64,000 nucleotides of DNA, taken from the NCBI RefSeq assembly GCF_003334815.1, contig NZ_QOWO01000006.1; one strand, given 5' to 3'. The stretch comes from Escherichia coli. GTDB taxonomy: Bacteria; Pseudomonadota; Gammaproteobacteria; Enterobacterales; Enterobacteriaceae. The position numbers were made by a program, and so were the translations under genes. Below, piece after piece: positions 988-1,001 of this stretch. Within the stretch, counting starts at the first letter, position 1, and the number at the start of each line of letters is the position of its first letter. The notes under the pieces were generated by a model. The model made no database searches and was not told where the DNA came from. It saw only the letters and a list, made by a program, of their open reading frames with translations.

Positions 988-1001
988 TTGATATATATCA
1001 A
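988..1001. promoter_or_regulatory. FNR box TTGAT-ATAT-ATCAA upstream of pdeF
   Basis: Perfect match to the FNR consensus TTGAT-N4-ATCAA at 988-1001, ~135 bp upstream of the pdeF ATG; pdeF/yfgF is reported as FNR-dependent and anaerobically expressed. Confidence 0.6.

Follow-up and report, generated by a model that had tools for sequence, protein, structure and literature searches.

A perfectly palindromic 14-mer lies in the AT-rich DNA upstream of pdeF (formerly yfgF), a c-di-GMP phosphodiesterase gene of Escherichia coli. It raises the question of whether the oxygen sensor FNR controls this gene through a promoter of recognizable class, and whether the divergent gene yfgG shares the same site. 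The window analyzed here is the whole stretch of 64,000 nt from contig NZ_QOWO01000006.1 (assembly GCF_003334815.1), and the locus stands at its very start, where the E. coli gene order is yfgH–yfgG–pdeF–ppx.

The minus-strand gene yfgH has its start at 271. Its neighbor yfgG (586–777, minus strand) has a GTG start and encodes a DUF2633 protein of 63 aa; it is divergent from pdeF and lies outside the FNR promoter. The pdeF coding sequence occupies 1129–3372 on the plus strand and specifies a protein of 747 aa with MASE1, degenerate GGDEF and EAL domains, the MASE1 and EAL domains being those found with Pfam; ppx follows on the minus strand. A query of 841 bp spanning 560–1400, from yfgG into pdeF, had matches in 5,424 of 5,426 complete E. 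coli genomes, with the genes annotated as yfgG and pdeF, and many E. coli genomes match this part of the window at 100% identity. The spacer between the two genes measures 351 bp (778–1128) and has a GC content of 34%, while the stretch 801–1100 has 29%. A preliminary description of this DNA, made from the sequence alone, had given the divergent region as 850 bp. That figure does not stand: 857 bp separate the yfgH start at 271 from the pdeF ATG, and this distance is reached only by counting the entire yfgG ORF (586–777) as part of the region. Within the spacer, RefSeq/PGAP annotates a hypothetical protein of 50 aa (WP_000017552.1; 795–947, plus strand) in AT-rich sequence. This ORF runs across the yfgG promoter and stops 40 bp short of the FNR box. 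It shows no sign of function and probably represents an annotation artifact.

The FNR box and the pdeF promoter

Both strands of the window were searched for TTGAT-N4-ATCAA with zero mismatches. The sole match was TTGATATATATCAA at 988–1001, a palindrome centered at 994.5, compared with 0.03 matches expected by chance (one or more matches arose in 3 of 100 shuffles). When up to one mismatch was allowed, the window contained 4 sites versus 2.75 by chance, the FNR-like sites with one mismatch being located at 37624, 47743 and 51717, within chance expectation. Since this total is not above chance, only the perfect site at 988–1001 stands out. Its center is 134.5 bp from the pdeF ATG at 1129. The perfect half-site pair and the distance of about 135 bp had both been read from the sequence in the preliminary description, and both were confirmed, the former as a unique zero-mismatch match in 64 kb.

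Another FNR site of the window, TTGACTTTAGTCAA at 9100–9113, is located in the upp/purM intergenic region and represents a symmetric box with two mismatches. It appears as a ChIP-seq peak in Table S6 of Myers et al. 2013 (PMC3688515), with no known FNR-dependent expression.

Downstream of the box at 988–1001, a spacer of 21 nt (1002–1022, plus strand), fixed in length and variable in sequence, leads to the hexamer TAGAAT (1023–1028, plus strand), which matches TATAAT at 5 of 6 positions and is the predicted -10 element of the FNR-dependent pdeF promoter. The spacer offers no usable -35 hexamer: the corresponding window (AATTGG/CAATTG/TCAATT) is a poor match and contains no TTGACA-like sequence. 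A start predicted 7–8 nt past the -10 element, at about 1035–1036, places the box at -40.5/-41.5. The pdeF 5' leader, its 5' end set by the -41.5 geometry, would then extend over 1036–1128 (plus strand), about 93 nt. As judged from the sequence, the combination of box, 21 nt and -10 element without a -35 element is the canonical geometry of a class II activator site, and the earlier suggestion of a class II site with a long 5' UTR is borne out in this arrangement.

The same promoter has been described in E. coli K-12. A class II FNR-dependent yfgF promoter is attributed to Lacey, Partridge & Green 2010 (Microbiology 156:2873), which, as relayed in PMC3718329, placed the FNR box at -41.5 and recognized TAGAAT as the -10 element. 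Mapping of the transcription start site (TSS) and the dependence on fnr and anaerobiosis are credited to the same study in PMC3718329 and PMC3688515, and in a RegulonDB curation paper, yfgF is entered as activated by FNR when oxygen is absent. As far as these secondary accounts convey the 2010 work, the experiment proposed in the preliminary description, start-site mapping combined with fnr dependence, is in effect already published. For comparison with the genome-wide data of Myers et al. 2013, their K-12 coordinates were mapped onto the window, which put the ATG at 1129, an exact correspondence. An FNR peak at yfgF/yfgG was called there by three ChIP-seq peak callers and by ChIP-chip (PMC3688515, Table S5), and the predicted site is the same 14-mer (K-12 position 2627088, PatSer 16.08, ln p -14.9; Table S6); that table flags the site for enrichment of neither H-NS nor IHF nor Fis. 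Table S9 gives yfgF as the estimated target of the peak and credits one known TSS to Lacey 2010. The box at 988–1001 is thus the already published oxygen-sensing site of pdeF, the link having been published in 2010 and confirmed genome-wide in 2013.

Occupancy of the site was not accompanied by a response of the gene under every condition. In wild-type MG1655 grown in glucose minimal medium, no FNR-dependent change of yfgF expression was recorded despite the peak (PMC3688515, Table S9), and no sigma-70 ChIP peak near the promoter (26268xx–26271xx) is found among the peaks listed in Tables S1/S2 of the same study. The missing fnr effect in the wild type, taken with the missing sigma-70 peak in those tables, points to a pdeF promoter of low strength or one silenced under some conditions. 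Loss of H-NS and StpA in a double mutant (hns/stpA) raised FNR occupancy from 0.35 to 1.68 (Table S7), and yfgF was 4.3-fold up anaerobically in this strain, with a +O2/-O2 ratio of 0.23 (Table S11).

Conservation and alternative readings

Loci of pdeF orthologues were collected by two routes. A genome scan yielded Escherichia spp., Enterobacter asburiae, Phytobacter, Kluyvera and one more Enterobacteriaceae genome; a protein search combined with contig look-ups yielded Salmonella enterica, E. fergusonii, Citrobacter rodentium, C. amalonaticus and one further Citrobacter sp., as well as three further lineages with 66–82% protein identity. All 22 orthologous promoters with upstream sequence carry a box with zero or one mismatch, exactly 21 nt of spacer and the hexamer TA(G/A/C)AAT, and in these 22 loci the box lies 124–150 bp from the called ATG. 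The N4 core varies among them (ATAT, TTAA, GTGC, ATGC, CTCA, TTAT and others). Conservation, expressed as the mean top-base frequency across 15 distinct lineages, reaches 0.95 in the half-sites and 0.96 in the -10 element; it is 0.70 for N4, 0.60 for the 21-nt spacer, which is about neutral, and 0.55–0.58 for the flanks. Four-fold degenerate pdeF sites, used as the neutral reference, gave 0.54, with none of 86 invariant. The locus therefore displays the features by which a class II site is recognized, i.e., a 14-bp inverted repeat, a spacing of about 21 nt, a weak or absent -35 element, and purifying selection on the half-sites but not on N4. At the level of sequence comparison, the footprint in the orthologues with its fixed 21-nt spacing is independent support, added by the present analysis to the published site.

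Within E. coli, the core promoter of 62 nt is present in 5,404 genomes. Among the variants sampled, the differences fall at 1006 and 1031, sparing both the box and the -10 element, and the T/A difference at 1006, in the 21-nt spacer, is a common polymorphism. In strain ES6 (NZ_CM184335.1, 1514–2331), an IS1 copy separates the FNR box from the -10 element; its target duplication GGAACTTTC corresponds to window positions 1004–1012 with the common T/A variant at 1006. The insertion moves the box about 0.8 kb from the core promoter and should abolish class II activation in such rare strains. Strain SCZE5 has an IS1 copy in the yfgG–pdeF region too.

FNR and CRP recognize related sites, with half-sites TTGAT/ATCAA being of the FNR type and GTGA/TCAC of the CRP type, and both activators work from positions -41.5, -61.5 and -71.5, a center at -56.5 lying on the wrong helical face. 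We consider it extremely improbable that so AT-rich a region produced the palindrome by chance, or that CRP and not FNR is its ligand, with no role for the box in oxygen control. The low GC content of the stretch 801–1100 does make (TA)n-like cores easy to arise, but chance would supply only 0.03 perfect sites per window, the half-sites read TTGAT/ATCAA and not GTGA/TCAC, and their conservation across genera is 0.95, with a variable AT-rich core between them. Unchanged yfgF expression in the fnr mutant under one condition could be taken to favor a site without function; the same study, however, places FNR ChIP-seq and ChIP-chip peaks on the box (PMC3688515). A different objection concerns the promoter itself. 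In Escherichia only, a sigma-70-like sequence, ATGACA-18-TATAGT (1015–1044, plus strand), provides an alternative or 'constitutive' promoter candidate for pdeF. If transcription of pdeF depended on it, with a start at about 1051, FNR would be centered at -56.5, acting as a class I-like activator or as a roadblock, although this position faces the wrong side of the helix for activation. The candidate has the top hexamer score of the region (10 of 12) and lies downstream of the FNR-dependent -10 element, by 16 bp, but the promoter scan returned 4 sites compared with 4.4 by chance in shuffled sequence. Outside Escherichia it is not conserved, whereas every lineage keeps TA(G/A/C)AAT in the class II register. 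The genomic SELEX work of Shimada et al. includes it as a 'constitutive' promoter of yfgF; the published position of the box, as given in PMC3718329, is -41.5. We find it very unlikely that this sequence is the functional pdeF promoter; it could be a minor or recent FNR-independent promoter, or non-functional.

The preliminary description had further proposed that the site may be shared with yfgG. For this gene, a promoter region is located at 808–850 on the minus strand, with a predicted -35 element TTGACC (850–845), a -10 element CTTAAT (827–822) and a reported TSS at about 808. This TSS was placed at K-12 2627275 by Peano et al. and corresponds to a distance of about 187 bp from the box center; the promoter TTGACC-17-CTTAAT was predicted by Shimada et al. 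as belonging to yfgG itself. Several observations are compatible with a bidirectional FNR site. A perfect palindrome has no intrinsic direction, the mirror position 966–961 carries AATTAT, a -10-like hexamer at 4 of 6 positions, and yfgG was about 2.2-fold up anaerobically in the wild type (ratio 0.453; Myers et al., Table S12, PMC3688515). Moreover, of the 21 loci whose upstream sequence extends far enough, 19 have a yfgG/DUF2633 homologue ahead of pdeF; none was called in the other two (L084 and L086). Nevertheless, a box near -187 from the reported yfgG TSS is far outside class I and class II positions, and the gene has its own promoter. The mirror hexamer is unconserved (0.63; e.g., TTTCGG, TTAATT or CTAATT) and in most genera bears no resemblance to a -10 element, and the spacing on the left flank is disturbed by indels. 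A divergent TSS at a class I or class II distance and a conserved -10 element, which would mark a bidirectional promoter, are thus both lacking at this locus. In PMC3688515, the peak is assigned to yfgF, and the list of FNR-dependent genes (Table S8) does not contain yfgG. Control of yfgG from the same box appears unlikely to us, and the suggestion of a shared site is unsupported. As an observation in its own right, yfgG is up anaerobically in wild-type MG1655 yet absent among the FNR-dependent genes of that study. The gene has been linked to Ni/Co tolerance in Dub-seq and RB-TnSeq experiments, and this tolerance gene does not appear to use the pdeF FNR site.

A further regulator has been connected with this DNA: BasR reportedly shifts a yfgF promoter fragment, with no site defined (PMC12419081). 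The BasR/PmrA box YTTAAK-N5-YTTAAK was tried against the sequence and rejected as a site here, since its best match (957–973) has 2 mismatches and its 33 matches compare with 34.5 expected. Just upstream of the FNR box, the AT-rich stretch GTAATAATTCATTAATCAGG (957–976, plus strand) is shared in part by Phytobacter and Kluyvera intermedia; it holds the PmrA/BasR-like direct repeat with 2 mismatches, which is no better than chance.

Probable mode of activation and comparison with known promoters

Taking these lines together, we hold it to be highly probable that the 14-bp palindrome at 988–1001 is the FNR site of a class II FNR-activated pdeF (yfgF) promoter. The basis for binding and position is the sequence and its rarity, the geometry between box and -10 element, the conservation, the published in vivo FNR occupancy and the published -41.5 assignment. 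In the absence of oxygen, [4Fe-4S]-FNR would dimerize and bind the box centered at -41.5. There it would stand in for the -35 element and recruit sigma-70 RNA polymerase to TAGAAT at 1023–1028, and transcription would proceed from about 1035–1036, giving a leader of about 93 nt before the ATG at 1129. Oxygen would inactivate FNR and turn the promoter off. H-NS/StpA on the AT-rich intergenic DNA would damp both FNR occupancy and promoter output in exponential-phase cells. We infer the recruitment step from established knowledge of class II FNR/CRP activation, and likewise the exact 5' end in this strain.

The promoter does not differ in substance from the yfgF class II promoter of K-12, with which it shares the locus, the 14-mer, TAGAAT and the -41.5 position. 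It also resembles that of yfiD/grcA (TTGATTTAAATCAA), where a perfect TTGAT-N4-ATCAA at about -41.5 replaces the -35 element and provides anaerobic activation; the PatSer scores of the two sites are comparable (16.08 for pdeF and 17.25 for yfiD/grcA; Myers et al., Table S6, PMC3688515). Unlike promoters of the yfiD/grcA type, pdeF is weakly expressed, with no FNR-dependent signal in the exponential glucose-grown wild type, and its occupancy and output rise once H-NS/StpA are removed.

A conserved element in the pdeF leader

The comparison of orthologues revealed a second conserved region, located in the leader. A nearly invariant block, GTCAGGTGGGATGCCTGTCTGA (1066–1087, plus strand), occupies +31 to +52. 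Across 15 lineages, 14 of its 22 positions are invariant, and its conservation of 0.92 compares with 0.54 at neutral sites; the block is better conserved than the first ten codons of pdeF. In E. coli, a leader stretch of 65 nt occurs once per genome, and 5,382 of 5,408 genomes carry it with 100% identity. The same leader block, taken as 1066–1128, was observed in the orthologue loci L002–L016 and L079–L086. A further conserved stretch, GAGCATCT (1121–1131, plus strand; the pre-ATG block being 1121–1128), lies directly 5' of the ATG at 1129–1131, within the ribosome-binding region; conservation is 0.90 over the 14 nt before the pdeF ATG plus the ATG itself. On this comparative evidence, we regard the leader block as a selected element whose function is undescribed.

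RNAalifold predicted a hairpin (hairpin 1, plus strand) in which CAGGU (1068–1072) pairs with GCCUG (1078–1082), the loop GGGAU holding a GGA. Its 6 pairs are kept in 100% of the alignment cells; three one-sided changes (A-U to G-U, U-G to U-A and G-C to G-U) preserve pairing, and no double compensation was seen. A candidate hairpin 2 (1092–1113, plus strand) would join CC(U)CC (1093–1097) to GGGGG (1108–1112) around the loop CAGGAUG, with GGA at 1102–1104. In this case, 83.6% of the cells are paired and one pair changes from CG to UA in 3 sequences; the support is weaker than for hairpin 1, and hairpin 2 is suggestive only. The first loop reads GGGAU or UGGAU in the 19 aligned sequences, and a second GGA occurs between the arms of hairpin 2 in 18 of the 19, the exception being Citrobacter sp. 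R-1.5.2 (L083), with an insertion there. The segment 1066–1113 thereby has one feature expected of CsrA-binding leaders, namely at least two GGA motifs with at least one of them in a hairpin loop. CsrA usually represses through a GGA site at the Shine–Dalgarno or start region, but no conserved GGA overlaps that region here: GAGCATCT contains none, and the E. coli sequence GGGGGAUU (1108–1115) is unconserved.

Other features of the leader RNA were considered as well. An Rfam scan of 250–1400 at E ≤ 1 returned only two meaningless eukaryotic matches, and folding of the whole leader gave no unusual stability (z = -0.25). Many of the MFE folds computed on single sequences pair GGAUGC (1074–1079) over a long range with GCAUCU (1123–1128), which would occlude the start region. 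This pairing is kept in 96.7% of the cells, but three lineage-specific substitutions (3 cells) break it without compensation; it is not favored over the local hairpin 1, paired in 100% of cells, on present covariation data. A mini-ORF, ATG-CCT-GTC-TGA (1076–1087), preceded by AGGTGG was rejected: its ATG is ATA in two loci (L084 and L085), and its stop codon is lost in Enterobacter asburiae and MGYG-HGUT-00110.

CsrA regulates the leaders of c-di-GMP genes, e.g., ycdT/dgcT and ydeH/dgcZ. The pdeF leader resembles such leaders in its short hairpins with GGA-bearing loops (GGGAU and CAGGAUG); the loop CAGGAUG is as in the CsrB repeats, and the two GGA motifs are 29 nt apart. It differs from them in that no conserved GGA is placed at the Shine–Dalgarno sequence, the covariation is weak, and the CLIP supplements searched hold no entry for the gene. 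Specifically, yfgF, pdeF, b2503 and STM2503 were not found in the E. coli and Salmonella CsrA CLIP/transcriptome supplements of PMC5694010 and PMC6347204, as far as these files are complete; the cells had been grown aerobically, a condition under which the promoter is off. A literature search returned no link between CsrA and yfgF/pdeF. The two GGA loops in the leader suggest CsrA as a candidate binder. We tentatively hypothesize, as a possibility short of an even chance, that the FNR-made pdeF transcript is under a second layer of control, in which the GGA hairpins and the pre-ATG block would be recognized by CsrA, an sRNA or a different RNA-binding factor, with translation or transcript stability gated in this way. 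Instead, the leader block could be a DNA operator for a repressor acting at +31 to +52. If leader control of the transcript is real, it could explain the low output of a consensus FNR site in exponential cells, with more in slow-growing cultures.

Together, these results leave the FNR–pdeF link itself as nothing new; what they add to it is the conserved geometry, the indication that yfgG does not appear to share the site, and a strongly selected element in the leader. As the class II geometry is strictly conserved across at least six genera, anaerobic control of pdeF is an ancestral trait of the group rather than a peculiarity of E. coli. Through this site, FNR-based oxygen sensing is coupled to the turnover of c-di-GMP, which in enterobacteria bears on motility, on surface properties and on the tolerance of peroxide.
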